Positions 15,529 to 57,265 of a DNA stretch of 64,000 nucleotides are shown piece by piece. Position 1 is the first letter of the stretch, and every line of letters begins with the position of its first letter. Below the pieces are notes generated by a model. That model did not search any database and was not told where the DNA came from. It saw nothing but the letters and a program-made list of their open reading frames with translations. The position numbers and the translations under genes were made by a program. Origin of the DNA: Escherichia coli (GTDB lineage: Bacteria; Pseudomonadota; Gammaproteobacteria; Enterobacterales; Enterobacteriaceae); the NCBI RefSeq assembly GCF_044647545.1, contig NZ_CP172818.1; one strand, 5' to 3'.

Positions 15529-15537
15529 CATTTCGCT
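15529..15537. repeat. Left copy of 9-bp target-site duplication (catttcgct) flanking IS1
   Basis: Identical 9-mer directly abuts both IS1 ends. Confidence 0.85.
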
Positions 15538-27137: not shown

Positions 27138-27269
27138 TCAATATTCCTTTTCAACTGACTCAAAATGGAGAAATACACTCCGCCGCCTTATGACGGGCAG
27201 TCTGACAAGGGTAAACAATAAAGCATAATTTTGCCAAATAGATCACAGATTTCTCATCTGTATCCTCTG

Positions 27270-36779: not shown

Positions 36780-37321
36780 TGAATTCTCACCTGTCGGCTA
36801 TTTTCTCCTTACCTCATGTGACATATTCCCCATTTTACTCAAAAAAAATTTATATAAAAGCACCTTTTTCATAAACCTTATTTCCCCCAAAAAAATCTTT
36901 TTTTATCCCTTTGGGCGTTTTTCCTGTTTTTTCCCCCTTTTTTTCTTTTTTACCCCTTAAAAAAAGGAACGCGGCATTTTTTTGCCCTACGAAAAAATCG
37001 TAAAATTTGCCGAGCCGGGTCTGGGTTTTAAGATCCCGTTTTTGAAAAGGGGAAAAAAATTTCCACCCGTAATAAGGCGGGGGTTTATCAGGGATTAAAG
37101 CCTTCAACCCCCCACCAGAAACCGGCAAAAAAAAAAATTGAGTGAGCTTCCACATAAAAAATTCAGAAAAAGGCGCGGTTTATACCACCTACAACACCAT
37201 TGAAGCATTAAAAGATCGTCTGATTGTCCGTCAGTTGCCAACTCAACTGGAGAATTCCCATATACATACAACTACAAAACAACAAACATAAACAAAACCC
37301 ACAAAAAAAAATATCTCTAAA
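36780..37321. other. Compositionally aberrant homopolymer-rich non-coding segment (origin unresolved; possible assembly/synthetic artefact)
   Basis: Dense runs of A7-11, T5-9, C5-6, G5; no credible ORF, RBS or RNA fold; cmtB-tktA spacer is ~885 bp here versus a few hundred bp as I recall for K-12. Confidence 0.5.
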
Positions 37322-37350
37322 GTAATAAAAAGGGCCGCTTTCGCGGCCCT
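37322..37350 (-). terminator. Rho-independent terminator immediately downstream of tktA
   Basis: Minus-strand hairpin agggccgc-gaaa-gcggccct followed by ttttattac. Confidence 0.75.
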
Positions 37351-37371
37351 TCTCACAAAGCATCTTACCGA

Positions 37372-39363
37372 TTACAGCAGTTCTTTTGCTTTCGCAACAA
37401 CGTTGTCAACGGTGAAGCCGAACTCTTCAAACAGCAGCTCTGCCGGAGCAGATTCACCGAAGGTGGTCATGCCGACGATAGCACCGTTCAGGCCAACATA
37501 CTTGTACCAGTAGTCAGCAATACCCGCTTCCACCGCAACGCGTGCAGTAACCGCTTTCGGCAGGACGGATTCACGGTAAGCCGCATCCTGCTTGTCGAAT
37601 GCATCGGTAGACGGCATGGAAACCACGCGCGCCTTCACGCCTTCGGCAGTCAGTTTTTCGTAGGCAGCAACCGCCAGTTCAACTTCCGAACCGGTCGCGA
37701 TGAAGATCAGTTCCGGCTGACCGGCACAGTCTTTCAGCACATAACCACCGCGCGCGATGTTTGCCAGCTGCTCTTCAGTACGCTCCTGCTGCGCCAGGTT
37801 CTGACGGGAGAGGATAAGCGCAGTCGGGCCGTCCTGACGCTCAACGCCGTATTTCCATGCCACTGCAGATTCAACCTGGTCACACGGACGCCATGTAGAC
37901 ATGTTCGGGGTCACGCGCAGTGAAGCGACCTGCTCAACCGGCTGGTGAGTCGGGCCATCTTCGCCCAGACCGATGGAGTCGTGGGTGTAAACCATCACCT
38001 GACGCTGTTTCATCAGCGCAGCCATACGTACGGCGTTACGTGCGTATTCCACGAACATCAGGAAGGTGGAGGTGTACGGCAGGAAGCCACCGTGCAGGGA
38101 GATACCGTTAGCAATCGCGGTCATACCGAACTCGCGAACACCGTAGTGGATGTAGTTACCCGCAACATCTTCGTTGATTGCTTTAGAACCAGACCACAGG
38201 GTCAGGTTAGACGGTGCCAGGTCAGCAGAGCCGCCGAGGAATTCCGGCAACAGCGGGCCGAACGCTTCAATCGCATTCTGAGACGCTTTACGGCTGGCGA
38301 TTTTCGCCGGATTAGCCTGCAGTTTAGCGATGAATTCTTTCGCTTTGGCATCGAAGTCAGACGGCATTTCGCCTTTCATACGGCGGGTAAATTCAGCGGC
38401 TTCCTGCGGATAAGCTTTCGCGTAAGCAGCGAATTTCTCGTTCCATGCGGATTCTTTCGCCTGGCCTGCTTCTTTCGCATCCCACTGAGCATAGATTTCA
38501 GACGGGATTTCGAACGGTGCATATTTCCAGCCCAGCTGTTCGCGGGTCAGGGCAATTTCAGCGTCGCCCAGCGGCGCACCGTGGGAGTCGTGCGTACCGG
38601 CTTTGTTCGGTGAACCGAAACCGATGATGGTTTTGCACATCAGCAGGGACGGTTTGTCAGTCACTGCGCGCGCTTCTTCTACTGCGCGTTTGATGGATGC
38701 CGCGTCATGACCGTCGATGCCGCGAATAACGTGCCAGCCGTAAGCTTCGAAACGCATTGCGGTGTCGTCGGTGAACCAGCCTTCAACGTGACCATCGATA
38801 GAGATACCGTTGTCATCGTAGAACGCAATCAGTTTACCCAGCTTCAGCGTACCCGCCAGAGAACAAACTTCGTGGGAGATGCCTTCCATCATGCAGCCGT
38901 CGCCCATGAAGGCGTAGGTGTAGTGGTCGACGATGTCGTGGCCCGGACGGTTAAACTGCGCCGCCAGCGTTTTTTCTGCAATCGCCATACCGACTGCGTT
39001 GGCAATACCCTGACCCAGCGGACCTGTAGTGGTTTCCACGCCAGCGGTGTAACCCACTTCCGGGTGGCCCGGAGTTTTAGAGTGCAGCTGACGGAAGTTT
39101 TTCAGTTCTTCCATCGGCAGATCGTAACCGGTGAGGTGCAGCAGGCTGTAGATCAGCATGGAGCCGTGGCCGTTGGACAGCACGAAGCGGTCACGGTCAG
39201 CCCAGGACGGATTCTGCGGGTTGTGTTTCAGGAAATCACGCCACAGGACTTCGGCAATGTCAGCCATACCCATAGGGGCACCCGGGTGACCGGATTTGGC
39301 TTTCTGTACTGCGTCCATGCTCAGCGCACGAATAGCATTGGCAAGCTCTTTACGTGAGGACAT
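37372..39363 (-). CDS. tktA: Transketolase 1
   Basis: 663-aa product [41 protein letters not shown]... Confidence 0.95.
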
Positions 39364-39640
39364 TTTGACTCCAGATCGGATGATGAAGGGCACGCCCTTA
39401 ACGACTTGACGACAGCGCGTTTTGGGCTACGCCGGAAAATTTGCCAACAATTTACCGCAAGCCGCGCGTCATGTACATGGAACATCCTTTTGCCGCTTCA
39501 GAAATCTCTGGATCATGCTCGCATGTTGCGCAATCTGCTCGCCCGTCCGCTGCGCTTTTCCTTATACTGAGACTGAGCGTCGATTCACCTGCAAACGGCG
39601 CATTTTTAGAATAATCCTGACCTTGTGCGGAAGAGAAAAC

Positions 39641-40399
39641 ATGAAAATTCGCGCCTTATTGGTAGCAATGAGCGTGGCAACGGTACTGACCGGTTGCCAG
39701 AATATGGACTCCAACGGACTGCTCTCATCAGGAGCGGAAGCTTTTCAGGCTTACAGTTTGAGTGATGCGCAGGTGAAAACCCTGAGCGATCAGGCATGTC
39801 AGGAGATGGACAGCAAGGCGACGATTGCGCCAGCCAATAGCGAATACGCTAAACGTCTGACAACTATTGCCAATGCGCTAGGCAACAATATCAACGGTCA
39901 GCCGGTGAATTACAAAGTGTATATGGCGAAGGATGTGAACGCCTTTGCAATGGCTAACGGCTGTATCCGCGTCTATAGCGGGCTGATGGATATGATGACG
40001 GATAACGAAGTCGAAGCGGTGATCGGTCACGAGATGGGGCACGTAGCGTTGGGCCATGTGAAAAAAGGGATGCAGGTGGCACTTGGTACAAATGCCGTAC
40101 GAGTAGCTGCGGCCTCTGCGGGCGGGATTGTCGGCAGTTTATCTCAATCACAACTCGGTGATCTGGGCGAGAAATTAGTTAATTCGCAATTCTCCCAGCG
40201 CCAGGAAGCAGAAGCCGATGATTATTCTTACGATCTTCTGCGCCAACGCGGCATCAGCCCGGCAGGTCTTGCCACCAGCTTTGAAAAACTGGCGAAGCTG
40301 GAAGAAGGCCGTCAAAGCTCAATGTTTGACGACCATCCAGCATCCGCCGAACGCGCCCAGCATATTCGCGATCGTATGAGCGCGGATGGAGTTAAGTAA
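39641..40399 (+). CDS. loiP: M48 family metalloprotease lipoprotein
   Basis: 252-aa product with lipobox LTGC and HEMGH zinc motif. Confidence 0.9.
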   Translation: MKIRALLVAMSVATVLTGCQNMDSNGLLSSGAEAFQAYSLSDAQVKTLSDQACQEMDSKATIAPANSEYAKRLTTIANALGNNINGQPVNYKVYMAKDVNAFAMANGCIRVYSGLMDMMTDNEVEAVIGHEMGHVALGHVKKGMQVALGTNAVRVAAASAGGIVGSLSQSQLGDLGEKLVNSQFSQRQEAEADDYSYDLLRQRGISPAGLATSFEKLAKLEEGRQSSMFDDHPASAERAQHIRDRMSADGVK

Positions 40400-40441
40400 T
40401 TTATTACGCCGGATTTGACGCATAACGCATCTTATCCGGGC

Positions 40442-41362
40442 TTACTCGCCCTTTTTCGCCGCCTGAATATACAGCATTTCCAGCGCCAGCGTCGCCGCAG
40501 CCAGAGCGGTGATTTCCGACTGATCGTATGCCGGAGCCACTTCCACTACGTCCATCCCAACAATGTTGAGATCTTTCAGGCCGCGTACCAGTTTAATAGC
40601 GCGATCGGAGGTCAGGCCGCCAATTACTGGCGTACCTGTTCCCGGCGCGAAAGCAGGATCCAGGCAGTCGATATCAAAGGTCAGGTAAACCGGCATATCA
40701 CCTACAATCTGTTTCACCTGAGCGATAACGTCATCCACGCTGCGATCGTTCACCTGGCAGGCGTCCAGCACGGTAAAACCGTTGTCTTTATCAAACTCGG
40801 TACGAATACCAATCTGCACGGAATGATTCGGGTCGATCAGACCTTCTTTCGGCGCGGTATAGAACATGGTGCCGTGGTCAAATTCACAACCGTTAGCGTA
40901 GGTATCGGTGTGGGCGTCAAAGTGTACCAGCGCCATTTTACCGAAATGCTTCGCATGAGCACGCAGCAGCGGCAGCGTAACAAAGTGGTCACCACCGAAG
41001 GAGAGCATACGCTTACCGGCAGCCAGCAGCTTCTCGGCGTGCGCCTGCAGCTTCTCGCTCATCTCACGGGCATCTCCGAAGGCATATACCAGATCGCCGC
41101 AGTCCACGACGTTCAGGCGCTCACGCATGTCGAAATTCCACGGGAAGCGATTGTGTTCCCAGGCCAGATTCGTCGAAACCTGACGGATCGCTGCCGGACC
41201 GTGGCGACCACCCGCACGACCAGAAGTGGCCATATCGAACGGCACGCCAGTAATCACCCAGTCAGCATCGCTGTCATATGGCTGGAAGTTCATCGGCAGG
41301 CGTAAAAAACCAAAGGCGTTGGAAACCAGTGAGTTATCGTATTGATGACCTAAGGTGCTCAT
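40442..41362 (-). CDS. speB: Agmatinase
   Basis: 306-aa product [29 protein letters not shown]... Confidence 0.95.
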
Positions 41363-41385
41363 GGATGGACTCCTATTACAAAGTC

Positions 41386-41425
41386 GATATAAAAAAACCC
41401 TTCCGCGTCGTTAGGCCCGACGAGG
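41386..41425 (-). terminator. Rho-independent terminator between speA and speB
   Basis: Minus-strand hairpin cccttcctcgtcgggcctaacgacgcggaaggg followed by tttttttat. Confidence 0.6.
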
Positions 41426-41528
41426 AAGGGTTGGATTTGCGAAACACAAGTATGCGCTAATTATCGCCTTAAATGAAAAGAGGGCCGCATCAAGGACTAA
41501 CACAGGTCCCATACCACCAAACTCCAAC

Positions 41529-43542
<2,014 letters not shown>

Positions 43543-43550
43543 AGCGAACC

Positions 43551-43682
43551 TCAAATTATTTTATTAAGTGTAAAACAGTTAACGACTATCGCAGCCTGGA
43601 ACTGCGATAACAACCCATAAGCACATGGATTTTCCAGCAGTGAATGCTGACGCTCCAACTGCGCAACCGGTTTCTTTTTCAT
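43551..43682 (-). CDS. yqgB: Small protein YqgB (43 aa)
   Basis: Minus-strand [46 protein letters not shown] just upstream of speA. Confidence 0.7.
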
Positions 43683-43817
43683 AACATTATTAAGCACATA
43701 ACCGAACGTAAGTGTGACAGTTCGGCGAAACCACGAGAAAACTCTTGTTTTTACAAGAGCGCCCTTGTTCAGTCCTCAGTAACTGTAACCAGCTCTTGAA
43801 TCCTGAGAAGCGCCGAG

Positions 43818-44033
43818 ATGGGTATAACATCGGCAGGTATGCAAAGCAGAGATGCAGAGTGCGGGGAACGAATCTTCACCAGAACGGTGAGACAGGTTAA
43901 GCAGCAGACAACGGTTCATTATTTCGTATCACCTCCACGGCCGCCTGTTAAGACGAACCCACAAGCCAAAACTCTGATTTCAACCCGGCTGGAAGTGGCA
44001 ACACGAAAGAAACGTCGTGTGCTTTTTATTTAA
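43818..44033 (+). CDS. yqgC: Small hypothetical protein (71 aa), possibly YqgC
   Basis: ORF of the expected size and position in the speA-metK interval; no other support. Confidence 0.35.
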
Positions 44034-44296
44034 GCCGCGCGCCGCGTTTTATACCCCACAATGGCAGAAAATTGCAAAAGATAAATACGCAGAATGCCAG
44101 CATTGTCAGGAAAAATTTCCAGCCACGTTTTTAAAAGAATGAGACACGATTCAAAAAAAAGTGGAAATCGGGTGAAGAATTGACCTAAAATAGCCATCCA
44201 GATGTTAATCCATCCATACCGATTAACACTCAGACTGCCAGTGTTTTTAACCTGCAGAGTCGTGGTAGGATCCGCTACCACAGAAAATCCACACAA
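44030..44296 (-). CDS. yqgD: Small hypothetical protein, possibly YqgD
   Basis: 88-aa ORF in metK upstream region; weak. Confidence 0.3.
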
Positions 44297-44336
44297 CAGT
44301 TTGAGCTAACCAAATTCTCTTTAGGTGATATTAAAT

Positions 44337-45491
44337 ATGGCAAAACACCTTTTTACGTCCGAGTCCGTCTCTGAAGGGCATCCTGACAAAATTGCTGACC
44401 AAATCTCTGATGCCGTTTTAGACGCGATCCTCGAACAGGATCCGAAAGCACGCGTTGCTTGCGAAACCTACGTAAAAACCGGCATGGTTTTAGTTGGCGG
44501 CGAAATCACCACCAGCGCCTGGGTAGACATCGAAGAGATCACCCGTAACACCGTTCGCGAAATTGGCTATGTACATTCCGACATGGGCTTTGACGCTAAC
44601 TCCTGTGCGGTTCTGAGCGCTATCGGCAAACAGTCTCCTGACATCAACCAGGGCGTTGACCGTGCCGATCCGCTGGAACAGGGCGCGGGTGACCAGGGTC
44701 TGATGTTTGGCTACGCAACCAATGAAACCGACGTGCTGATGCCAGCGCCTATCACCTATGCACACCGTCTGGTACAGCGTCAGGCTGAAGTGCGTAAAAA
44801 CGGCACTCTGCCGTGGCTGCGCCCGGACGCGAAAAGCCAGGTGACTTTCCAGTATGACGACGGCAAAATCGTTGGTATCGATGCTGTCGTGCTTTCCACT
44901 CAGCACTCTGAAGAAATCGACCAGAAATCGCTGCAAGAAGCGGTAATGGAAGAGATCATCAAGCCGATTCTGCCGGCTGAATGGCTGACTTCTGCCACCA
45001 AATTCTTCATCAACCCGACCGGTCGTTTTGTTATCGGTGGCCCGATGGGTGACTGCGGTCTGACTGGTCGTAAAATTATCGTTGATACCTACGGCGGCAT
45101 GGCACGTCACGGTGGTGGTGCATTCTCTGGTAAAGATCCATCAAAAGTGGACCGTTCCGCAGCGTACGCAGCACGTTATGTCGCGAAAAACATCGTTGCT
45201 GCTGGCCTGGCCGATCGTTGTGAAATTCAGGTTTCCTACGCAATCGGCGTGGCTGAACCGACCTCTATCATGGTGGAAACTTTCGGTACCGAGAAAGTGC
45301 CTTCTGAACAACTGACTCTGCTGGTACGTGAGTTCTTTGACCTGCGTCCATACGGTCTGATTCAGATGCTGGATCTGCTGCACCCGATCTACAAAGAAAC
45401 CGCAGCATACGGTCACTTTGGTCGCGAACATTTCCCGTGGGAAAAAACCGACAAAGCGCAGCTGCTGCGCGATGCTGCCGGTCTGAAGTAA
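44337..45491 (+). CDS. metK: S-adenosylmethionine synthetase
   Basis: 384-aa product [32 protein letters not shown]... Confidence 0.97.
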
Positions 45492-45511
45492 TCTTTCTTC
45501 ACCTGCTTTCA

Positions 45512-45542
45512 AAGGCCAGCCTCGCGCTGGCCTTTTTCTTTT
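45512..45542 (+). terminator. Rho-independent terminator of metK
   Basis: Hairpin aaggccagc-ctcgc-gctggcctt followed by tttctttt. Confidence 0.75.
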
Positions 45543-45926
45543 ACCTCACCGCGGTGGATAGGCGTTCACGCGGCATCCGGCAAAAAGCTGCCCGCACAAT
45601 AACATCATTCTTCCTGAACACGTTTTACCGCAAATTATCATCGCTACTGAAACCGATTACACCAACCACACCAGACAAAGATTTGTAATATTTTCATATT
45701 ATTATTCGGTTTTCACAGTTGTTACATTTCTTTTCAGTAAAGTCTTAATTGCAGATAACAGCGTTTAATCTATGATGATATAACTCAATTATTTTCATGC
45801 ACTTAAATCATAACTAAGATAAATGTTAGTGTAAGCGATTACACTGATGTGATTTGCTTCACATCTTTTTACGTCGTACTCACCTATCTTAATTCACAAT
45901 AAAAAATAACCATATTGGAGGGCATC

Positions 45927-47321
45927 ATGCCTGACGCTAAAAAACAGGGGCGGTCAAACAAGGCAATGACGTTTTTCGTCTGCTTCCTTGCTGCTCTGGC
46001 GGGATTACTCTTTGGCCTGGATATCGGTGTAATTGCTGGCGCACTGCCGTTTATTGCAGATGAATTCCAGATTACTTCGCACACGCAAGAATGGGTCGTA
46101 AGCTCCATGATGTTCGGTGCGGCAGTCGGTGCGGTGGGCAGCGGCTGGCTCTCCTTTAAACTCGGGCGCAAAAAGAGCCTGATGATCGGCGCAATTTTGT
46201 TTGTTGCCGGTTCACTGTTCTCTGCGGCTGCGCCAAACGTTGAAGTACTGATTCTTTCCCGCGTTCTGCTGGGGCTGGCGGTGGGTGTGGCCTCTTATAC
46301 CGCACCACTGTACCTGTCAGAAATTGCGCCGGAAAAAATTCGCGGCAGTATGATCTCGATGTATCAGTTGATGATCACTATCGGGATCCTCGGTGCTTAT
46401 CTTTCTGATACCGCCTTCAGCTACACCGGTGCATGGCGCTGGATGCTGGGTGTGATTATCATCCCGGCAATTTTGCTGCTGATTGGTGTCTTCTTCCTGC
46501 CAGACAGCCCTCGTTGGTTTGCCGCCAAACGCCGTTTTGTTGATGCCGAACGCGTGCTGCTGCGCCTGCGTGACACCAGCGCGGAAGCGAAACGTGAACT
46601 GGATGAAATCCGTGAAAGTTTGCAGGTTAAACAGAGTGGCTGGGCGCTGTTTAAAGAGAACAGCAACTTCCGTCGCGCGGTGTTCCTTGGCGTACTGTTG
46701 CAGGTAATGCAGCAATTCACCGGGATGAACGTCATCATGTATTACGCGCCGAAAATCTTCGAACTGGCGGGTTATACCAACACTACCGAGCAAATGTGGG
46801 GGACGGTGATCGTCGGCCTGACTAACGTACTCGCCACCTTTATCGCAATCGGCCTTGTTGACCGCTGGGGACGTAAACCAACGCTAACGCTGGGCTTCCT
46901 GGTGATGGCTGCTGGCATGGGCGTACTCGGTACAATGATGCATATCGGTATCCACTCTCCGTCGGCGCAGTATTTCGCTATCGCCATGCTGCTGATGTTT
47001 ATTGTCGGTTTTGCCATGAGTGCCGGTCCGCTGATTTGGGTACTGTGCTCCGAAATTCAGCCGCTGAAAGGCCGCGATTTTGGCATCACCTGCTCCACCG
47101 CCACCAACTGGATTGCCAACATGATCGTTGGCGCAACGTTCCTGACCATGCTCAACACGCTGGGTAACGCCAACACCTTCTGGGTGTATGCGGCTCTGAA
47201 CGTACTGTTTATCTTGCTGACATTGTGGCTGGTACCGGAAACCAAACACGTTTCGCTGGAACATATTGAACGTAATCTGATGAAAGGTCGTAAACTGCGC
47301 GAAATCGGCGCTCACGATTAA
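45927..47321 (+). CDS. galP: Galactose:H+ symporter (MFS)
   Basis: 464-aa product [40 protein letters not shown]... Confidence 0.95.
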
Positions 47322-47397
47322 TCTCCTCAGGCTTCCTCCCGTCGCGGAGGAAGCCACCTCTTGCAGTCATCTTTTCTTCGCTCTATCCTCTGCCGCT

Positions 47398-47895
47398 ATG
47401 AAAACATCCCGTCTCCCTATCGCCATCCAACAGGCCGTTATGCGTCGCCTGCGGGAAAAACTCGCCCAGGCCAACCTGAAGCTAGGACGTAACTACCCGG
47501 AGCCAAAACTCTCTTACACCCAGCGCGGCACCTCCGCCGGAACAGCCTGGCTGGAAGGCTATGAAATTCGCCTCAATCCCGTTTTGCTGTTGGAAAACAG
47601 TGAAGCCTTTATTGAAGAAGTGGTGCCGCACGAACTGGCACATTTGCTGGTATGGAAACATTTCGGCCGCGTAGCACCACATGGCAAAGAGTGGAAGTGG
47701 ATGATGGAAAGCGTGCTGGGCGTTCCCGCCCGTCGTACGCATCAGTTTGAACTGCAATCCGTGCGCCGCAACACCTTCCCCTACCGCTGTAAGTGCCAGG
47801 AACATCAGCTTACCGTACGCCGCCATAATCGCGTAGTTCGTGGCGAAGCCGTCTATCGCTGTGTTCACTGCGGCGAACAGCTGGTTGCGAAATAA
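47398..47895 (+). CDS. sprT: SprT family protein
   Basis: 165-aa product with HELAH zinc motif and C-terminal Cys pairs. Confidence 0.85.
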
Positions 47896-47989
47896 CCACC
47901 TGAACTATCAGGAACTTTCCTGACCTGGCTGATTGCATACCAAAACAACTTTCGCTACGTTGCTGGCTCGTTTTAACACGGAGTAAGTG

Positions 47990-48697
47990 ATGTACCGTTA
48001 TTTGTCTATTGCTGCGGTGGTACTGAGCGCAGCATTTTCCGGCCCGGCGTTGGCCGAAGGTATCAATAGTTTTTCTCAGGCGAAAGCCGCGGCGGTAAAA
48101 GTCCACGCTGACGCGCCCGGTACGTTTTATTGCGGATGTAAAATTAACTGGCAGGGCAAAAAAGGCGTTGTTGATCTGCAATCGTGCGGCTATCAGGTGC
48201 GCAAAAATGAAAACCGCGCCAGCCGCGTAGAGTGGGAACACGTCGTTCCCGCCTGGCAATTCGGTCACCAGCGCCAGTGCTGGCAGGACGGTGGACGTAA
48301 AAATTGCGCCAAAGATCCGGTCTATCGCAAGATGGAAAGCGATATGCATAACCTGCAACCGTCAGTCGGCGAGGTGAATGGCGATCGCGGCAACTTTATG
48401 TACAGCCAGTGGAATGGCGGCGAAGGCCAGTACGGTCAATGCGCCATGAAGGTCGATTTCAAAGAAAAAGCTGCCGAACCACCAGCGCGTGCACGCGGTG
48501 CCATTGCGCGCACCTACTTCTATATGCGCGACCAATACAACCTGACACTCTCCCGCCAGCAAACGCAGCTGTTCAACGCATGGAACAAGATGTATCCGGT
48601 TACCGACTGGGAGTGCGAGCGTGATGAACGCATCGCGAAGGTGCAGGGCAATCATAACCCGTATGTGCAACGCGCTTGCCAGGCGCGAAAGAGCTAA
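47990..48697 (+). CDS. endA: Periplasmic DNA-specific endonuclease I
   Basis: 235-aa product [22 protein letters not shown]... (signal peptide). Confidence 0.95.
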
Positions 48698-48776
48698 CCT
48701 ACACTAGCGGGATTCTTTTTGTTAACCCCTACCCCACGCGTACAACCGCGTGGGGAGACGACGCGGATTTTTAACT

Positions 48777-49508
48777 ATGCGTATCCCCCGCATTTATCAT
48801 CCTGAACCACTGACCAGCCATTCTCACATCGCGCTTTGCGAAGATGCCGCCAACCATATCGGGCGCGTACTGCGCATGGGGCCGGGGCAGGCGTTGCAAT
48901 TGTTTGACGGCAGCAACCAGGTCTTTGACGCCGAAATTACCAGCGCCAGCAAAAAAAGCGTGGAAGTGAAGGTGCTGGAAGGCCAACTCGACGATCGTGA
49001 ATCTCCGCTGCATATTCACCTCGGTCAGGTGATGTCGCGTGGCGAAAAAATGGAATTTACTATCCAGAAATCGATCGAACTCGGTGTAAGCCTCATTACG
49101 CCACTTTTTTCTGAACGCTGCGGCGTTAAACTGGATAGTGAACGTCTGAACAAGAAGCTCCAGCAGTGGCAGAAGATTGCAATTGCTGCCTGTGAGCAGT
49201 GTGGTCGTAACCGGGTGCCGGAAATCCGTCCAGCGATGGATCTGGAAGCCTGGTGTGCAGAGCAGGATGAAGGACTGAAACTGAATCTTCACCCGCGCGC
49301 CAGTAACAGCATCAATACGTTGCCGTTACCGGTTGAACGCGTCCGCCTGCTGATTGGCCCGGAAGGCGGTTTATCGGCAGATGAAATTGCCATGACTGCC
49401 CGCTATCAATTTACTGATATCCTGTTGGGACCTCGCGTTTTGCGTACAGAGACAACTGCGCTCACCGCCATTACCGCGCTACAAGTACGATTTGGCGATT
49501 TGGGCTAA
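48777..49508 (+). CDS. rsmE: 16S rRNA (uracil1498-N3)-methyltransferase
   Basis: 243-aa product [37 protein letters not shown]... Confidence 0.9.
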
Positions 49509-49520
49509 CGGAGAAGAATA

Positions 49521-50471
49521 ATGATCAAGCTCGGCATCGTGATGGACCCCATCGCAAACATCAACATCAAGAAAGATTCCAGTTTCGCTATGTTGCTGGA
49601 AGCACAGCGTCGTGGTTACGAACTTCACTATATGGAGATGGGCGATCTGTATCTGATCAATGGCGAAGCCCGCGCCCATACCCGCACGCTGAACGTGAAG
49701 CAGAACTACGAAGAGTGGTTTTCGTTCGTCGGTGAACAGGATCTGCCGCTGGCCGATCTCGATGTGATCCTGATGCGTAAAGACCCGCCGTTTGATACCG
49801 AGTTTATCTACGCGACCTATATTCTGGAACGTGCCGAAGAGAAAGGGACGCTGATCGTTAACAAGCCGCAGAGCCTGCGCGACTGTAACGAGAAACTGTT
49901 TACTGCCTGGTTCTCTGACTTAACGCCAGAAACGCTGGTTACGCGCAATAAAGCGCAGCTAAAAGCGTTCTGGCAGAAACACGGCGACATCATTCTTAAG
50001 CCACTGGACGGTATGGGCGGCGCGTCGATTTTCCGCGTGAAAGAAGGCGATCCAAACCTCGGCGTGATTGCCGAAACCCTGACTGAGCATGGCACTCGCT
50101 ACTGCATGGCGCAAAATTACCTGCCAGCCATTAAAGATGGCGACAAACGCGTGCTGGTAGTGGATGGCGAGCCGGTGCCGTATTGCCTGGCGCGTATTCC
50201 GCAGGGGGGCGAAACCCGTGGCAATCTGGCTGCCGGTGGTCGCGGTGAACCTCGTCCGCTGACGGAAAGTGACTGGAAAATCGCCCGTCAGATTGGGCCG
50301 ACGCTGAAAGAAAAAGGGCTGATTTTTGTTGGTCTGGATATCATCGGCGACCGTCTGACTGAAATTAACGTCACCAGCCCAACCTGTATTCGTGAGATTG
50401 AAGCAGAGTTTCCGGTGTCGATCACCGGAATGTTAATGGATGCCATCGAAGCACGTTTACAGCAGCAGTAA
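49521..50471 (+). CDS. gshB: Glutathione synthetase
   Basis: 316-aa product MIKLGIVMDPIANINIKKDSSFAMLLEAQRRGYELHYMEMGDLY... Confidence 0.95.
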   Translation: MIKLGIVMDPIANINIKKDSSFAMLLEAQRRGYELHYMEMGDLYLINGEARAHTRTLNVKQNYEEWFSFVGEQDLPLADLDVILMRKDPPFDTEFIYATYILERAEEKGTLIVNKPQSLRDCNEKLFTAWFSDLTPETLVTRNKAQLKAFWQKHGDIILKPLDGMGGASIFRVKEGDPNLGVIAETLTEHGTRYCMAQNYLPAIKDGDKRVLVVDGEPVPYCLARIPQGGETRGNLAAGGRGEPRPLTESDWKIARQIGPTLKEKGLIFVGLDIIGDRLTEINVTSPTCIREIEAEFPVSITGMLMDAIEARLQQQ

Positions 50472-50579
50472 CCCACCTTAGCGAGAAGGATCTCGTTGAG
50501 ACTCTGAGTGACAGCGCCCTTCTTTCCACGCATACTGGGCGCTGTTGCTTTTTTGAACCAGGAAACAGAACCTCTGACA

Positions 50580-51143
50580 ATGAATTTACAGCATCACTTT
50601 CTTATTGCCATGCCTGCTCTCCAGGATCCGATTTTCCGTCGTTCCGTGGTCTACATTTGCGAACATAATACCAATGGTGCAATGGGGATCATCGTCAACA
50701 AGCCGCTGGAAAATCTCAAAATTGAAGGGATTCTGGAAAAGCTGAAGATCACGCCGGAGCCGCGTGATGAATCAATCCGTCTGGATAAACCGGTTATGCT
50801 CGGCGGTCCGCTGGCTGAAGATCGCGGGTTTATTTTGCATACTCCGCCCTCCAATTTTGCTTCCAGCATTCGCATTTCAGACAACACGGTGATGACCACT
50901 TCCCGCGATGTGCTGGAAACGCTCGGCACCGATAAACAACCGTCTGACGTATTGGTGGCTCTGGGTTATGCCTCCTGGGAGAAAGGTCAACTGGAACAAG
51001 AAATTCTCGATAACGCGTGGCTAACGGCCCCGGCAGATCTGAATATTCTGTTCAAAACGCCGATTGCCGACCGCTGGCGCGAGGCGGCAAAACTGATTGG
51101 TGTGGATATTCTCACCATGCCTGGTGTGGCAGGACACGCCTGA
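50580..51143 (+). CDS. yqgE: UPF0301 family protein YqgE
   Basis: 187-aa product [29 protein letters not shown]... Confidence 0.85.
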
Positions 51144-51559
51144 TGAGTGGAACCTTACTCGCCTTCGACTTCGGTACCAAAAGCATTGGTGTAGCGGTCG
51201 GCCAACGCATTACCGGCACCGCTCGCCCATTGCCTGCAATTAAAGCACAGGACGGTACGCCGGACTGGAATCTCATCGAACGTTTACTGAAAGAGTGGCA
51301 GCCGGACGAAATCATCGTTGGTTTGCCGCTGAATATGGATGGCACCGAGCAACCATTGACTGCCAGAGCCCGTAAATTTGCCAACCGTATTCATGGCCGT
51401 TTCGGTGTTGAAGTAAAGCTCCATGACGAGCGTCTTAGCACCGTGGAGGCACGTTCCGGTCTGTTTGAACAGGGCGGCTATCGGGCGCTCAACAAAGGCA
51501 AAGTTGACTCTGCCTCTGCGGTTATTATTCTCGAAAGCTATTTCGAGCAGGGATATTAA
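51143..51559 (+). CDS. ruvX: RuvC-like pre-16S rRNA nuclease / putative Holliday junction resolvase
   Basis: 138-aa product [30 protein letters not shown]...; start overlaps yqgE stop. Confidence 0.9.
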
Positions 51560-51564
51560 GGCGA

Positions 51565-51770
51565 TTTAAAAGCCTGGCGGATAGTCGTACCATCCCGCCA
51601 TCTTGCCGGATGCGGCGTGAACGCCTTATCCAGCACACATCTGGCAGCGGCTGTAGGTCTGATAAGACGCGTTAGCGTCGCATCAGACGTTTATTGCCGG
51701 GTGCTGCGTTTGTATGCCTGATAAGCGTAGCGCATCAGGCATATTTACTAAACTAATCAATCACTTTAGC
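51565..51770. repeat. REP/BIME cluster
   Basis: Palindromic units gccggatgcggcgtgaacgccttatccagc and gcctgataagcgtagcgcatcaggc. Confidence 0.8.
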
Positions 51771-51771
51771 C

Positions 51772-52752
51772 TCACAAACGTCCTTCCCCCACCCGCTGCT
51801 GATAACTCTGCTGAAACGTTAACATCCCCACCTGCTGCCCGGTTTGAATAACATGCGGCAACTGGTGGGTTTTCCCTTCGCGAATCAAATTCCCCACCGC
51901 GGGAGTGTTAATCAGTAATTCAAACAGCGCCACGCGTCCTTCCTGTTTATCCACTTCCAGCTTTTGTGACAGCACTGCCCGTAAACTACCCGCCAGTTGA
52001 TTACGTACGGGATCTTTTTCCTGCGCCGGAAATGAATCCACCAGTCGCTCAACTGCCTGCGCGGCACCACGCGTATGTAAAGTTGCCAGCACCAGGTGTC
52101 CGGTTTCTGCTGCCGTCAGCGCCAGACGGATTGTCTCGCTGTCACGCAGCTCTCCGAGCAAAATCACATCGGGATCTTCCCGCAATGCGGCCCGCAATCC
52201 CGATGCGAACGTCATACAGTGCAAACCAATCTCCCGCTGCTGGATCAAACATCGCTGGCTGGCATAGAGATATTCCACAGGATCTTCCAGCGTCAGAATA
52301 TGCGCATCGGCATGTTGATTGAGATAGCCAACCATCGCCGCCAGCGTGGTAGATTTGCCGCTCCCCGTCGCCCCCGTCACCAGAATCAGGCCATTCTCGC
52401 TCTTGAGTAATTCCGGCAATACCGGTGGCGCACCAAGCTGTTCGAGCTGTGGACAGTGCGAAGGTAACAACCGTAATGCCAGAGAAATACCTTGCCGTTG
52501 CGCGAACGCACTGCCACGCAACCGCTGATTTTCCGCCAGCGACACAGCAAAATCCAGCTGACCATTCTCCAGCAATATTGCCCGCTGATCGTCATCCAGC
52601 CACTCCCGCAGTAGCTCTTCGACGCCCGGCGCATCAAACGGCGCAGCTTCCATTCGCCCGCGAATACGCCATCGTGCGGGCCAGGCGCTGCACAGGTGTA
52701 GATCCGAGACGTTATGCTTTACACTAAGGGCCACAATTTCTTCCATATTCAT
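51772..52752 (-). CDS. yggR: PilT-like type IV pilus retraction ATPase homologue
   Basis: 326-aa product MNMEEIVALSVKHNVSDLHL... with Walker A GATGSGKST. Confidence 0.85.
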   Translation of the reverse strand: MNMEEIVALSVKHNVSDLHLCSAWPARWRIRGRMEAAPFDAPGVEELLREWLDDDQRAILLENGQLDFAVSLAENQRLRGSAFAQRQGISLALRLLPSHCPQLEQLGAPPVLPELLKSENGLILVTGATGSGKSTTLAAMVGYLNQHADAHILTLEDPVEYLYASQRCLIQQREIGLHCMTFASGLRAALREDPDVILLGELRDSETIRLALTAAETGHLVLATLHTRGAAQAVERLVDSFPAQEKDPVRNQLAGSLRAVLSQKLEVDKQEGRVALFELLINTPAVGNLIREGKTHQLPHVIQTGQQVGMLTFQQSYQQRVGEGRL

Positions 52753-52769
52753 ACTAAGATCCTCGGAAA

Positions 52770-53474
52770 ATGAACGATATTGCGCATAACCTGGCACAGG
52801 TCCGGGACAAAATCTCAGCGGCTGCAACGCGTTGCGGCCGTTCTCCAGAAGAAATTACGCTGCTTGCAGTCAGTAAAACAAAACCTGCGAGCGCCATCGC
52901 AGAAGCCATTGATGCCGGGCAGCGTCAATTTGGTGAAAACTACGTTCAGGAAGGGGTAGATAAAATTCGCCACTTTCAGGAACTGGGCGTAACAGGATTA
53001 GAATGGCATTTTATTGGCCCGTTGCAGTCTAATAAAAGCCGCCTGGTGGCAGAGCATTTCGACTGGTGTCATACCATCGACCGTTTGCGCATTGCTACCC
53101 GCCTCAACGATCAGCGCCCGGCAGAACTTTCCCCTCTTAACGTACTGATTCAAATTAATATTAGTGATGAAAACAGTAAGTCCGGGATTCAACTGGCAGA
53201 ACTGGACGAGCTGGCAGCTGCGGTCGCTGAACTACCGCGTTTACGTCTGCGCGGGCTGATGGCAATCCCTGCGCCTGAGTCAGAATATGTAAGGCAGTTT
53301 GAAGTTGCACGCCAAATGGCTGTAGCATTTGCCGGACTGAAAACGCGCTACCCGCATATCGACACGCTCTCTCTGGGAATGTCGGACGATATGGAAGCCG
53401 CCATTGCGGCAGGTAGCACGATGGTTCGTATCGGCACTGCAATTTTTGGTGCGCGTGATTACTCTAAAAAATAA
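52770..53474 (+). CDS. yggS: PLP homeostasis protein (YggS/PLPBP family)
   Basis: 234-aa product MNDIAHNLAQVRDKISAAATRCGRSPEEITLLAVSKTKP... Confidence 0.9.
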   Translation: MNDIAHNLAQVRDKISAAATRCGRSPEEITLLAVSKTKPASAIAEAIDAGQRQFGENYVQEGVDKIRHFQELGVTGLEWHFIGPLQSNKSRLVAEHFDWCHTIDRLRIATRLNDQRPAELSPLNVLIQINISDENSKSGIQLAELDELAAAVAELPRLRLRGLMAIPAPESEYVRQFEVARQMAVAFAGLKTRYPHIDTLSLGMSDDMEAAIAAGSTMVRIGTAIFGARDYSKK

Positions 53475-53491
53475 GGAATTAAAGGAACGCC

Positions 53492-54058
53492 ATGAATACG
53501 TTGACTTTCCTGCTTTCAACGGTCATTGAGCTGTATACCATGGTGCTGTTATTACGCATCTGGATGCAGTGGGCTCATTGTGATTTTTACAACCCCTTCT
53601 CACAGTTTGTGGTGAAGGTAACGCAGCCAATTATCGGGCCACTGCGCCGCGTTATTCCGGCAATGGGTCCCATTGATAGCGCCTCGCTGCTGGTTGCGTA
53701 CATTCTCAGTTTCATCAAAGCCATCGTGCTGTTTAAAGTGGTGACCTTCCTGCCAATCATCTGGATTGCCGGTTTACTGATTCTGCTGAAAACCATCGGC
53801 CTGCTGATTTTCTGGGTCCTGCTGGTGATGGCGATTATGAGCTGGGTAAGCCAGGGTCGTAGCCCGATTGAATACGTGCTGATTCAGCTGGCAGATCCGC
53901 TGCTGCGCCCGATTCGCCGCTTGCTACCGGCAATGGGTGGGATTGATTTCTCGCCGATGATCCTCGTTCTGCTGCTGTATGTCATCAATATGGGTGTCGC
54001 AGAAGTATTACAGGCAACCGGAAACATGCTGCTGCCGGGGCTGTGGATGGCGTTATGA
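53492..54058 (+). CDS. yggT: YggT family integral membrane protein
   Basis: 188-aa hydrophobic product. Confidence 0.85.
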
Positions 54059-54345
54059 GTGCCGTAACAGTTAATGATGACGGTCTGGTTTTACGGCTCT
54101 ATATTCAGCCGAAAGCCAGCCGTGATTCTATTGTCGGTTTACATGGCGACGAGGTAAAAGTCGCCATTACCGCGCCGCCGGTTGACGGCCAGGCCAACAG
54201 CCATCTGGTGAAGTTTCTCGGTAAGCAATTCCGGGTTGCCAAAAGCCAGGTGGTGATTGAAAAAGGCGAACTTGGCCGCCACAAACAAATTAAAATCATT
54301 AATCCGCAACAAATCCCGCCAGAAATCGCGGCGTTAATTAATTAG
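54055..54345 (+). CDS. yggU: DUF167 family protein YggU
   Basis: 96-aa product [36 protein letters not shown]... Confidence 0.85.
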
Positions 54346-54352
54346 GTATCAT

Positions 54353-54946
54353 ATGCAAAAAGTTGTCCTCGCAACCGGCAATGCCGGTAAAGTGCGTGAG
54401 CTGGCGTCGCTGCTTAGCGACTTCGGTCTTGATATCGTGGCCCAAACAGACCTCGGCGTAGATTCCGCTGAAGAAACCGGCCTGACCTTTATTGAAAACG
54501 CGATTCTGAAAGCGCGCCATGCGGCAAAAGTGACCGGTTTACCGGCAATTGCCGACGACTCCGGTCTGGCGGTAGATGCGCTGGGTGGCGCGCCGGGTAT
54601 TTACTCCGCGCGTTATTCCGGTGAAGACGCGACCGATCAAAAGAATCTGCAAAAACTGCTGGAAACGATGAAAGACGTACCGGACGACCAACGTCAGGCG
54701 CGTTTCCACTGCGTGCTGGTATATCTGCGTCACGCGGAAGATCCCACTCCGCTGGTATGCCACGGTAGCTGGCCAGGCGTGATTACTCGTGAACCAGCGG
54801 GCACTGGTGGCTTTGGTTATGATCCAATCTTCTTCGTACCTTCCGAAGGGAAAACCGCTGCCGAACTGACCCGCGAAGAAAAGAGCGCCATTTCCCACCG
54901 TGGTCAGGCGTTGAAACTGCTGCTGGACGCTTTACGTAATGGTTAA
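54353..54946 (+). CDS. rdgB: dITP/XTP pyrophosphatase
   Basis: 197-aa product [21 protein letters not shown]... Confidence 0.95.
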
Positions 54947-56075
54947 ATTACCGCCGCTGAGTCTCTACATTCACATCCCGTGGTGCGTGCAGAAATGCCC
55001 GTACTGCGATTTCAACTCTCACGCGTTGAAAGGAGAAGTGCCGCACGACGATTATGTTCAGCATCTGCTTAACGATCTGGACAACGATGTGGCTTACGCT
55101 CAGGGCCGTGAAGTAAAGACAATCTTTATTGGCGGTGGTACGCCGAGCCTGCTTTCCGGCCCGGCGATGCAAACGCTGCTGGACGGCGTGCGTGCGCGTT
55201 TGCCGCTGGCAGCGGATGCAGAAATTACTATGGAAGCGAACCCTGGTACGGTAGAAGCCGATCGCTTTGTCGATTATCAGCGTGCTGGTGTGAACCGCAT
55301 CTCTATTGGTGTGCAGAGTTTTAGCGAAGAAAAGCTGAAACGACTTGGGCGCATTCATGGCCCGCAAGAAGCGAAACGAGCTGCGAAGCTGGCGAGCGGT
55401 TTAGGGTTACGTAGCTTTAACCTTGATTTGATGCATGGGCTGCCGGATCAATCACTGGAAGAGGCGCTAGGCGATCTGCGCCAGGCTATTGAACTGAATC
55501 CGCCGCATCTTTCCTGGTATCAACTGACCATCGAACCTAATACGCTGTTTGGCTCTCGCCCGCCGGTGCTGCCGGACGACGATGCGTTGTGGGATATATT
55601 CGAACAGGGGCATCAGTTATTAACCGCAGCGGGCTATCAGCAGTATGAAACATCCGCTTACGCCAAACCAGGTTATCAGTGCCAGCACAATCTCAACTAC
55701 TGGCGTTTTGGCGACTACATCGGTATTGGCTGCGGCGCGCACGGCAAAGTGACCTTCCCGGATGGGCGCATTCTGCGTACCACCAAAACGCGTCATCCGC
55801 GTGGTTTTATGCAGGGAAGATATCTGGAAAGCCAGCGTGATGTCGAAGCCGCAGATAAGCCGTTTGAGTTCTTTATGAATCGCTTCCGTCTGTTGGAAGC
55901 CGCGCCGCGCGTGGAGTTTAGCCAGTATACTGGCCTTTCTGAAGAAGTTATTCGCTCTCAGTTAGACGAGGCCATCGCTCAGGGTTATCTCACAGAATGT
56001 GCGGATTACTGGCAGATAACGGAACATGGTAAATTATTCTTAAACTCACTTCTTGAATTATTCCTCGCTGAGTAA
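54939..56075 (+). CDS. hemW: Radical SAM heme chaperone HemW
   Basis: 378-aa product with CxxxCxxC ([14 protein letters not shown]). Confidence 0.9.
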
Positions 56076-57265
56076 TCATTAATGCCGCATGCGGCGTTAA
56101 TCACTTCTATAATAAATATAATTATATATTAAACATATATTAAAATAACACAACAATAATATTCTTCAATCAAAAATAAACAAAAACACACGATGAACCG
56201 AACAACATGCAAAAACAAATCACATCTCAAAAATTTATAACACTCTTCCCCTCCAACAACGAAAACAAAGAAAAATACGTTAAAAAACAAAAAATATCGA
56301 AACAGAAAAACGAAAAAAAAATAAAGTAATGAATCACCACACGAGAACAAGAAAAAAACAACAAAATATATACTAATAACACAGTAGGAAAGGAATAAGA
56401 ATCAACAAAGAAATTTTTACCATCATCAAACGATAACAAACAACCGAAGAGGGAGATAGTTGCCACACCGACACAGAACATCTCTCCACATCACAACAAT
56501 AACAGGTAGCGGAGCACCCCCAATAACCAAAACACAGACCCATACTTGACAACCAGAACAAAAAAACACAACGACAAAAACCAAACAACGAAGAATGAAA
56601 AATGATAAAGAAGAAATTGAATAATTAACACTATCACCCCTACATCAAACTAGAAAAGAAATCGTTGTTAGATATGCGCGGTGTGGTGGTCCTGTGATGC
56701 GCGAACTAGGCGTGACGCCTTTTCTGTCGCCGTCATGCTTGCTCTGGTTGTATGCGTAGTCTGATAAGACGCTCCAAACCACAAAAGCACAGCATCCCAT
56801 TCAGACCAAAGAAGGTTATGATTGCCGGCATTTTCTACCGCTGTCAACGTCTCATCTTGTTATAACTGGATTACTGATACCGCCCTCAAACGTGTTAATT
56901 GTTTTTCCCTACACTGCGCGTTTCTAGCACGCTATTAGCGGGATATGCAAGGGACTAAGAGTCGCGGTAAAAACCGGCATATCAAACGCGGCTACCCGCT
57001 TCAGAAAAAGCAACCTCCAGGCCTAAAGCGTTCGACCTACCAAGTTCTCGTCAAGGCGGCATCGGCGGCATTTTACGCAACGAAGGCCGATCTTCACAAT
57101 TATGATTACCGGGAATAAAATCGCGATTTACCCAAACGATCGAACGGTTACAAATAATTCGCACCGCAAACCAACAATCCAAAAACTAGGATTCAAACCC
57201 ACCAAATAAAAAAAAAAAAAAAAAGGAAAAACAAAAAAAAAAACAACAAAAAAAAAAAAAAGAAA
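56076..57265. other. ~1.2 kb non-coding segment of aberrant composition: A/C-rich block (~56100-56640), ORF-free block with REP-like fragment (~56640-57180), A-rich tail (57181-57265)
   Basis: Strong strand-asymmetric A+C bias with very little G/T in the first block; runs A17, A11, A14 abutting yggM stop; only low-complexity ORFs in the track; hemW-yggM spacer is <100 bp in K-12 as I recall. Confidence 0.5.

Follow-up and report, generated by a model that had tools for sequence, protein, structure and literature searches.

Three aberrant segments in an Escherichia coli sequence are probably corrupted renderings of ordinary accessory loci

Introduction

A collapse of their output into homopolymer runs has been reported for autoregressive models of genomes (bioRxiv 10.64898/2026.01.17.700093). 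Here we analyze three segments in a stretch of 64,000 nucleotides of E. coli DNA (hereafter the window) that resemble such a collapse. As in long generations by Evo 2, quality declines gradually in a single direction until it ends in runs of a single nucleotide (bioRxiv 10.64898/2026.01.17.700093), and well-represented sequence fares better. In contrast to the Evo 2 type of collapse, however, that in the window stays local, at 0.1-1.2 kb, and the sequence then falls back exactly into register with a real genome; furthermore, the other ~58 kb of the window are ~100% identical to one real lineage, which would need the true sequence as an input.

Three other systems are partly similar. Long-read basecalling or consensus and collapsed presence/absence heterogeneity in assemblies produce deletion-rich errors that involve homopolymers, and they do so at structurally polymorphic sites; unlike these artefacts, the segments show a preferential loss of G and T, length-preserving copying of neighboring bases, a one-sided gradient, a run of 35 A and perfect core genes. 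Poly(A)-terminated non-LTR retroelements and processed pseudogenes, of which we know no example in bacteria, share with the window a seemingly foreign segment that has an A-run on one side. The segments differ from them in having no target-site duplications, no reverse-transcriptase open reading frame (ORF) and no conserved 5' end, and in replacing resident genes of which they contain degraded pieces. Finally, bacterial pseudogene decay, which is deletional and biased towards AT, leaves shortened, A-enriched, non-coding remnants of genes. In the window, in contrast, the flanks are identical to those of relatives with intact genes, the written strand shows a gradient of damage and the substitutions are copies of neighboring bases rather than a mutational spectrum.

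Results

The segments replace intact genes of close relatives

The genomes nearest to the window are E. coli FDAARGOS_497 and Ecol_881, which are essentially identical to it apart from the defects; outside of these the identity to NZ_CP033850.1 and NZ_CP019029.1 is 99.9-100%. The two relatives agree with each other at every position where the window deviates. The comparison confirmed three aberrant segments, at 36833-37326, 41475-41565 and 56086-57265. The original prediction had located them on the 3' side of minus-strand genes, with intact coding sequences on both sides, and the coordinates bear this out. Each segment adjoins the low-coordinate side of such a gene, i.e. tkt (tktA; transketolase, 37372-39363), speA (41566-43542) or yggM (57266-58273), and the flanking coding sequences cmtB, tkt, speB, speA, hemW and yggM are all intact and 100% identical to those of the relatives.

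The location was also described as intergenic. This is correct for the window itself but not for the relatives, which have annotated intact genes at exactly these three sites; the spaces look intergenic because the resident genes were destroyed. The resident loci are a Band_7/prohibitin gene, a gene for a 243-aa hypothetical protein together with the speA terminator, and a DctP/Q/M TRAP-transporter operon. A Pfam search of the products from the relatives gave matches to Band_7, DctP, DctQ and DctM. The lost genes have an unremarkable GC content of 40-51%.

Contrary to the earlier framing, the segments are not insertions. They replace longer accessory loci, and segments 1 and 3 hold noisy pieces of them: ~940 nt became 494 nt in segment 1, 900 nt became 91 nt in segment 2 and 3169 nt became 1157 nt in segment 3. 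The corresponding spacers in the window and in the relatives measure 886 versus 1330 bp (cmtB-tkt), 203 versus 1012 bp (speB-speA) and 1190 versus 3203 bp (hemW-yggM). The sequences of the empty sites in K-12 did not match the segments.

Anatomy of the segments

All parts of the segments are given here on the plus strand. Segment 1 begins with a length-preserving, homopolymer-smoothed copy of the ribosome binding site and the 5' third of the prohibitin-family gene (36833-37170), whose intact counterpart in the relatives is WP_000646940.1 (Pfam Band_7). This copy contains 63 substitutions, 61 of which reproduce the adjacent base (random expectation 31.8 +/- 3.7). It is followed by an 84-nt island of perfect copy (37171-37254), bounded by the last difference at 37170 and the next break at 37255. 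Then 57 nt of A/C-rich junk (37255-37311; A.61, C.26, T.12, G 0) stand in place of 486 bp of the gene, with no significant residual homology to the sequence replaced. A run of nine A (37303-37311) ends this junk, and a noisy version of the final 15 nt of the prohibitin coding sequence, with a 2-nt deletion and a 1-nt insertion, completes the segment (37312-37326). Fidelity is back before the terminator hairpin of tkt.

Segment 2 (41475-41565) consists of 55 nt of A/C-rich junk, a run of 35 A (41530-41564) and a C. It stands in place of 900 bp comprising the minus-strand gene for the hypothetical protein WP_000758898.1, its upstream region and the speA terminator. The intact protein of the relative had no family in a Pfam search, and the junk has no significant residual homology to the replaced locus. 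Identity restarts at the first base of the speA stop codon.

Segment 3 starts just past hemW with a hairpin that is changed by small indels and one substitution (56086-56108); the altered hairpin resembles the REP-like K-12 motif GCCGGATGCGGCG. The next 604 nt (56109-56712) are A-rich junk (A.51) in place of 1349 bp, which in the relatives hold an intergenic region, dctP and the start of dctQ. Here only a weak colinear signal connects the junk with the lost DNA, in that the longest common subsequence is 560, compared to maxima of 547 for shuffled sequences and 540 for random regions. A 56-nt piece of dctQ, the small permease of the TRAP transporter, is 93% identical (56713-56768), and it precedes a decaying copy of 441 bp of dctM, the large permease (56788-57137), which is near-perfect at the start and then accumulates deletions, mostly of G and T. 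The last part (57138-57265) is A-rich junk with runs of 17, 11 and 14 A within 57208-57261; it takes the place of the final 540 bp of the locus, made up of the dctM 3' end and the spacer, and runs up to yggM, where identity restarts at the first base of the stop codon. For the junk in 57138-57207 a derivation from the replaced gene was not demonstrable in the homology test.

Two compositional claims are valid only in part. The A-runs were said to lie nearest the stop codons, and they do abut those of speA and yggM; the run of nine A is 61 nt away from the stop codon of tkt, and between the two lie what was kept of the prohibitin gene at its 3' end and the terminator hairpin of tkt, itself intact. 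The segments were also said to share an A-rich or AC-rich composition, but the bulk of segment 1 (36833-37170) is T/A/C-rich and homopolymer-smoothed, not AC-rich.

The damage is polar and follows the written strand

The 64 kb contain seven homopolymers of at least 9 nt, all of them A-runs inside the segments; stretches of 80 kb from the closest genome and 70 kb from K-12 contained no homopolymer of this length. Along the plus strand a faithful copy gives way to bases overwritten by their neighbors, then to the loss of G and T, to A/C junk and to A-runs, before 100% identity returns abruptly. In the decaying dctM copy of segment 3, A is retained at.97, C at.88, G at.67 and T at.60, and in blocks of 50 nt along the plus strand retention drops from.96 to.48. 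The decay proceeds from left to right on this strand in all three segments, and the lost genes are oriented plus, minus and plus. Hence polarity and extent follow the written strand and the type of sequence and not the orientation of the genes, as an artefact should.

The damage starts 10-280 nt inside islands that are missing in K-12, not at the breakpoints of K-12 homology, and it is one-sided, with junk reaching the backbone only at the right edge. Segments 2 and 3 stop exactly where the K-12-shared sequence restarts, at the stop codons of speA and yggM, respectively. The placement at the stop codons of minus-strand genes occurs because the damage runs from left to right and halts at this restart. 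The original prediction took the placement as non-random and as a sign of one shared mechanism. The data support the shared mechanism; the link with gene ends rests on n=3 and would arise in about 1 of 8 cases by chance.

Fidelity depends on the class of sequence

The coding sequence that the window shares with K-12, which serves here just as a proxy for the common E. coli backbone or for the commonness of a sequence, was reproduced at 52,657 of 52,664 bases (99.99%), the other 7 differing from the relative; for K-12-shared intergenic DNA the count is 5,392 of 5,401. The non-K-12 coding sequence was reproduced to only ~36% and the non-K-12 intergenic sequence to 43%. Expressed as loss, this is 0.01% of the K-12-shared versus 64% of the non-K-12 coding sequence. 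Five of the six non-K-12 blocks of at least 100 bp are lost or corrupted. The exception is a 2.5-kb block from a DUF1471 gene to a FAD oxidoreductase gene, including an IS1, which is reproduced at 99.6%; the rule that non-backbone sequence collapses is therefore not absolute.

Further deletions and indels occur elsewhere in the window, nearly all of them in non-K-12 or intergenic sequence. A 1347-bp deletion at 14480 has the exact yqfE breakpoints of K-12, but with the SNPs of the relatives. When the junction and the island that follows it were used as a 401-nt query, 0 of 5,426 complete genomes held it in one match over at least 80% of the query. A frameshift in scpA is due to a small error of the homopolymer type, the shortening of six C to five at 18348.

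The segments are absent from public data

Segment 3 is covered in 0 of 5,426 complete E. coli genomes, and its TRAP remnant is matched in 1,477 of them. All of the genomes that match segments 1 and 2 best have the intact genes in their place. An exact 50-mer occurs in neither genome_contigs nor metagenome_contigs, so that irreproducibility in independent genomes, the mark of an artefact, was indeed found. Searches of the segments against phages and Rfam gave no match, plasmid matches were restricted to a 51-nt dctQ remnant, and no foreign homologues were found. The longest ORF in the segments, 101 aa of low complexity, is not on record.

Discussion

The anatomy of the segments, their error spectrum, their link with non-backbone sequence and their absence from public data are direct observations. 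The most plausible reading of the segments is that the sequence record is defective, not that they are a real biological feature. We consider it likely (probability roughly 0.8) that three ordinary accessory loci were rendered in corrupted form by a prior-driven, directional process of copying or generating. This agrees with the systematic artefact that the original prediction had listed among its options.

Such a process would move 5' to 3' along the written plus strand, with a fidelity set by the familiarity of the sequence, so that the K-12-shared backbone would be copied essentially perfectly. Some 10 to 280 nt after leaving the backbone the copy would degrade, first by overwriting with neighboring bases, then by skipping G and T, then by writing only A and C and finally A-runs; at the next backbone sequence it would regain register, exactly or within ~70 nt. 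The agent may be a predictor with a learned or reference prior, e.g. a generative genome model, re-emission by a language model, or a neural or template-driven consensus. Judged from the footprint, the step was probably a prior-driven or autoregressive computation and less likely a noisy long-read consensus. The features expected of model output were found, namely a collapse into low complexity and homopolymers with a fidelity that tracks commonness; the K-12-type junction at 14480 and the drift towards a REP-like motif belong to this evidence. Because 52 kb of one lineage appear at ~100% identity, the process must presumably have had the true sequence as input, as in copying, in-filling or consensus; a free-running generative model could not have given this result.

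A wet-lab sequencing or assembly artefact is an unlikely alternative. Few and very noisy long reads, a mixture of strains or a template without the genes might have left a collapsed, lossy consensus, and the dominance of deletions in 56788-57137 and homopolymer-type errors such as that in scpA fit this idea. The affected sites are also all polymorphic for presence or absence in E. coli: at least 80% of the cmtB-tkt query is covered in only 1,813 of 5,426 genomes, besides the 1,477 with the TRAP remnant. A K-12-type junction with the SNPs of the sample itself, as at 14480, is even expected from a template-guided consensus. However, none of the 5,426 complete genomes has the combination of alleles that a template would need, and the onset of damage inside the islands and on one side, away from the K-12 breakpoints, is not explained. 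Substitution by neighboring bases, loss of G and T, a run of 35 A and shrinkage to 10-50% of the length are atypical of long-read consensus and, to our knowledge, not among its usual errors. With the ordinary GC content of the lost genes a drop-out in coverage is not expected.

Deliberate alteration is much less probable. Genes could have been scrambled or masked computationally, or knockouts made in vivo could have left designed scars or tags behind, and it is true that the segments match whole gene units roughly and that the adjoining genes are untouched. An engineering scar or cassette remnant should have clean junctions and a common scar; the boundaries are instead ragged, with graded, noisy and degraded homology inside, and no common scar, tag, FRT/lox-like or primer sequence is present. 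In addition, the speA terminator is gone, a designed tract of 35 A would be unstable, and many more small defects occur elsewhere in the window.

Least probable of all is real biology in the form of poly(A)-terminated (retro)insertions, strand-specific hypermutation or deletion, or rapid pseudogene decay of recently acquired genes, for which the A-runs at one end of each segment and the non-random placement in horizontally acquired genes might speak, but against which stand the replacement of resident loci by shorter segments, always with the A-runs on the plus strand, a polarity that ignores gene orientation, and the public-data results given above. The original prediction saw neither target-site duplications nor conserved termini, and a search for flanking direct repeats and a comparison of words confirmed this: the two edges share words of at most 5-6 nt, which lie off the junctions, and the segments have no word of at least 12 nt in common outside low complexity. 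No long ORF is present, the longest being that of 101 aa, and none for a reverse transcriptase. Pseudogene decay fails on divergence, since flanks identical to the relatives allow no time in which segment 1 could have gained 63 substitutions over ~420 nt, compared to 7 in 52,664 K-12-shared coding bases. We know of no mutational process that copies neighboring bases and then deletes G and T, and we infer that the footprint is unlike that of a mutational or mobile-element process. It is equally improbable that the record is true and that a living E. coli lineage erodes recently acquired genes to A-rich tracts by strand-polar neighbor copying and then loss of G and T with its core genes untouched; if it were, xenogeneic DNA would be destroyed there and not silenced.

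The data give no indication of a new mobile element, tag or mutational process. Favoring a corrupted rendering of accessory loci, we conclude that the value of the finding lies in quality control and not in biology. The window, and presumably the whole record, is unreliable wherever its sequence departs from the common E. coli backbone, and the 1347-bp deletion at 14480, the scpA frameshift and the small intergenic deletions do not warrant a biological interpretation either. Other oddities of the window need a comparison with a close reference first. Taken at face value, the prohibitin-family gene, the hypothetical gene and the TRAP transporter would be mis-scored as absent, or their remains as novel intergenic elements.

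Results

The window spans the E. coli chromosome from bglA to mltC, which is equivalent to about 3.04-3.11 Mb in K-12. Direct reading of the written (+) strand at the places flagged in the original prediction showed three A-rich stretches, each with a minus-strand gene on its right side. Segment 1 (36833-37326), next to tkt, contains many short homopolymers and has an A/C-rich end with A9. Segment 2 (41475-41565), next to speA, consists of an A/C-rich 55 nt followed by A35. Segment 3 (56086-57265), next to yggM, starts with about 600 A-rich nt, continues with about 450 nt of ordinary appearance and ends in about 130 nt that include the runs A17, A11 and A14. The 64 kb contain seven homopolymers of at least 9 nt, every one of them an A-run within these segments; 80 kb of the closest genome and 70 kb of K-12 have none. 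The same three anomalies stand out in the composition profile. They are real and far above chance level, and the observation in the original prediction is to this extent largely borne out. The apparent rule that it drew, with such segments immediately 3' of minus-strand genes, is based on three cases. It is a by-product of recovery where backbone sequence returns; at speA and yggM this point happens to be a stop codon.

Queries from the window were compared by megablast with 5,426 complete E. coli genomes. The flanks of the segments are ubiquitous among these genomes. The best matches (FDAARGOS_497, ECONIH1, MS6198, Ecol_881 and others) carry extra DNA at all three sites. In their annotation, cmtB and tkt are separated by a prohibitin-family gene (+ strand), speB and speA by a gene for a 243-aa hypothetical protein (- strand), and hemW and yggM by a TRAP transporter operon of three genes (+ strand). 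The resident gene products match the Pfam families Band_7, DctP, DctQ and DctM; the 243-aa protein gave no Pfam match. Because all three loci are absent from K-12, they are accessory genes. In the window the cmtB-tkt, speB-speA and hemW-yggM spacers measure 886, 203 and 1190 bp, against 1330, 1012 and 3203 bp in the relatives; in NZ_CP019029.1 the three regions are at 4,191,882-4,195,084, 4,209,595-4,210,529 and 4,214,604-4,215,854. Most of the cmtB-tkt query is covered in 1,813 of the 5,426 genomes (about one third), and the TRAP remnant is matched in 1,477 of 5,426. None of the 5,426 covers segment 1 or segment 2, and the count for segment 3 is also 0/5,426. An exact 50-mer had no match in collections of genome and metagenome contigs, and an exact-protein look-up of a 101-aa ORF from the low-complexity A- or A/C-rich sequence inside the segments (hereafter junk) returned nothing on record. 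One complete genome matched none of the four queries (tkt, speA, yggM and rpiA-argP).

Alignment of the whole window with two near-identical relatives, FDAARGOS_497 and Ecol_881, gave blocks of 99.9-100% identity, which are broken exactly at segments 1-3 and in a few other places. The two references agree with each other at every point where the window deviates. We then classed every Ecol_881 base across the window by coding status and by homology to K-12, a proxy for the common backbone. The window reproduces 52,657 of 52,664 bases in K-12-shared coding sequence and 5,392 of 5,401 in K-12-shared intergenic sequence; the values for non-K-12 sequence are 36% (coding) and 43% (intergenic). Five of the six non-K-12 blocks of at least 100 bp are lost or corrupted, namely 117 bp after bglA, a 1346-bp LysR/azoreductase block and segments 1-3, while the sixth, of 2.5 kb, is kept at 99.6%. 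The first damage comes 10, 36 and 277 nt past the exit from the backbone. It ends exactly at the return to the backbone in segments 2 and 3, and about 70 nt before this return in segment 1.

Alignment to the relatives indicated how the sequence is lost. In segment 1 the copy is perfect through 36832, which is 21 nt upstream of the prohibitin ATG. From 36833 to 37170 the length is kept and the sequence is "smoothed" toward neighbouring bases: 61 of 63 substitutions make a base the same as its neighbour (random expectation 31.8 +/- 3.7). The copy is perfect again from 37171 to 37254; 486 bp are then replaced by 57 nt of A/C junk, and the last 15 nt of the prohibitin gene return with two small indels. 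The tkt terminator and tkt itself are perfect. In segment 2, 91 nt replace 900 bp that in the relatives comprise the hypothetical gene with its upstream region as well as the speA terminator; the match is restored from the first base of the stop codon of speA. In segment 3, a slightly altered hairpin after hemW forms the left edge, and 604 nt of A-rich junk then replace 1349 bp with only a weak colinear signal (longest common subsequence 560, shuffle maximum 547). A 56-nt dctQ piece (93% identical) and a copy of 441 bp of dctM follow. The latter has a near-perfect start and a mounting loss of bases, with retention per 50 nt falling from.96 to.48 and differing by base (A.97, C.88, G.67, T.60). 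A-rich junk then extends to the yggM stop codon, where identity is restored. Local alignments of the short junk pieces to the replaced genes did not exceed those of shuffles; at such lengths the longest-common-subsequence test is uninformative.

The segments share one order of events. A faithful copy passes into neighbour-copy substitutions and then into loss of G and T; A/C junk and A-runs come next, and recovery is abrupt. The decay runs from left to right on the + strand in all of them, and the destroyed genes lie on the +, - and + strands. The earlier proposal of one mechanism is supported, and so is an artefact, the first of the options that it listed.

The window has further defects. At 14480/14481 a clean deletion takes out 1347 bp that the closest relatives retain, including the greater part both of a LysR regulator gene and of an FMN-dependent azoreductase gene. 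Its breakpoints are those of the K-12 yqfE pseudogene junction, and the SNPs are those of the relatives. With a 401-nt query across this junction and the following DUF1471 island, 0 of the 5,426 complete genomes gave one match that included the junction and extended over at least 80% of the query. The deletion probably belongs to the same corruption as the segments. The terminator-like hairpin after hemW (56080-56100), at the left edge of segment 3, reads ATGCGCCTGCGGGCGCAT in the relatives and ATGCCGCATGCGGCGT in the window; the altered form resembles the REP-like motif GCCGGATGCGGCG, which is the K-12 sequence at the same position.

Smaller differences from the two references are scattered over the window. 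Just after the bglA stop codon, which is TAG here and TAA in the relatives, about 3 nt take the place of their non-K-12 REP-like spacer of about 101 bp (1007-1011). Indels of 1-4 nt and substitutions occur at 14750, 14805, 15133-15143, 15472, 15840, 15998-16001, 16049, 16326, 16627-16628 and 16750, all within an accessory island with a DUF1471 gene, a ferric-reductase-like gene, IS1 and an FAD-binding oxidoreductase; the DUF1471 frame is shifted for 55 nt between +A at 14750 and -G at 14805. The IS1 copy (15538-16300) interrupts the ferric-reductase-like gene, as it does in Ecol_881. FDAARGOS_497 also lacks the 463 bp beside it (window 15075-15537), which looks like natural strain variation. 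The sole indel found in K-12-shared coding sequence is a contraction from C6 to C5 at 18348, near the 5' end of scpA (methylmalonyl-CoA mutase), which leaves a longest ORF of 648 aa, compared with 714 aa in the relatives. Intergenic deletions of 7, 8, 4 and 1 nt are located at 27265-27268, 36563, 40400 and 40440, in the mscS-fbaA, cmtB-prohibitin and loiP-speB spacers; after the deletion at 36563 the window reads CAATTGAG, the K-12 form, and then continues with the sequence of the relatives. Five isolated core-gene substitutions distinguish the window from both references: 34484 (yggP), 58617, 58630 and 58888 (ansB) and 61229 (probably trmB). The one at 58617 is the K-12 allele. These five may be either true SNPs of the source strain or additional errors.

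Discussion

The footprint of the segments is that of a lossy copy. The copy is directional along the written strand, with a fidelity set by how common a sequence is; it collapses to homopolymers and re-synchronises at familiar sequence. The most likely source, we infer, is a process whose output is shaped by a prior, learned or taken from a reference; it may be a sequence model that generates or re-emits DNA, or a consensus built by a neural or template-driven method. Such a prior is also pointed to by the K-12 yqfE junction with the SNPs of the relatives at 14480, and by the hemW hairpin and the 8-nt deletion at 36563, both of which resemble the K-12/REP-like versions. Autoregressive genome models are reported to fail by collapsing into homopolymers (bioRxiv 10.64898/2026.01.17.700093). 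Such a process would have needed the true sequence as its input, since 52 kb match one lineage at approximately 100%.

The main rival is a wet-lab failure of a long-read or mixed-strain consensus at sites that are polymorphic for presence or absence. This would account for the bias toward deletions and for the K-12-type junction, but it is a poor fit to a gradient confined to one side, to substitutions that copy a neighbour, to a loss specific to G and T, to A35 and to the perfect core. A majority-rule pangenome consensus could explain dropped columns, but presumably neither the neighbour-copy substitutions and A35 nor the 100% identity of the core genes to one lineage. A consensus guided by K-12 is rejected in view of the faithful non-K-12 sequence to the left of each segment (35-277 nt) and the faithful 2.5-kb non-K-12 block; the required allele combination is also found in 0/5,426 complete genomes. 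Nor are the segments K-12 "empty site" alleles or hybrids, as they have no similarity to K-12 past the common flanks.

Polyadenylated RNA or cDNA reads are an improbable in vitro source of the A-runs, given that the run is internal to the + strand prohibitin gene rather than terminal and that segment 2 replaces a minus-strand gene. The original prediction had also considered poly(A)-terminated insertions and engineering scars. The search for direct repeats that it called for revealed no target-site duplications at segments 1-3, nor any shared termini, and the segments have no word of at least 12 nt in common outside low complexity. They have no substantial ORF and moreover replace longer resident loci, and an insertion, mobile element or retroelement is rejected on these grounds. 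An engineering scar is contradicted by the graded degradation and the lack of common sequence. Natural decay is not compatible with flanks that are identical to those of genomes with intact genes. Simple bit-level corruption is rejected too: for length-preserving damage to a 2-bit encoding (G→A plus T→C, or G→C plus T→A), ungapped identities were at chance level. As to a foreign origin, the segments have no phage or Rfam match, and only the 51-nt dctQ remnant matched the plasmid collection.

Segments 1-3 are not a real feature of this chromosome; we put the probability that they are artefacts, under either the prior-driven process or the wet-lab failure, at about 0.95. The non-core sequence of this record deserves distrust.
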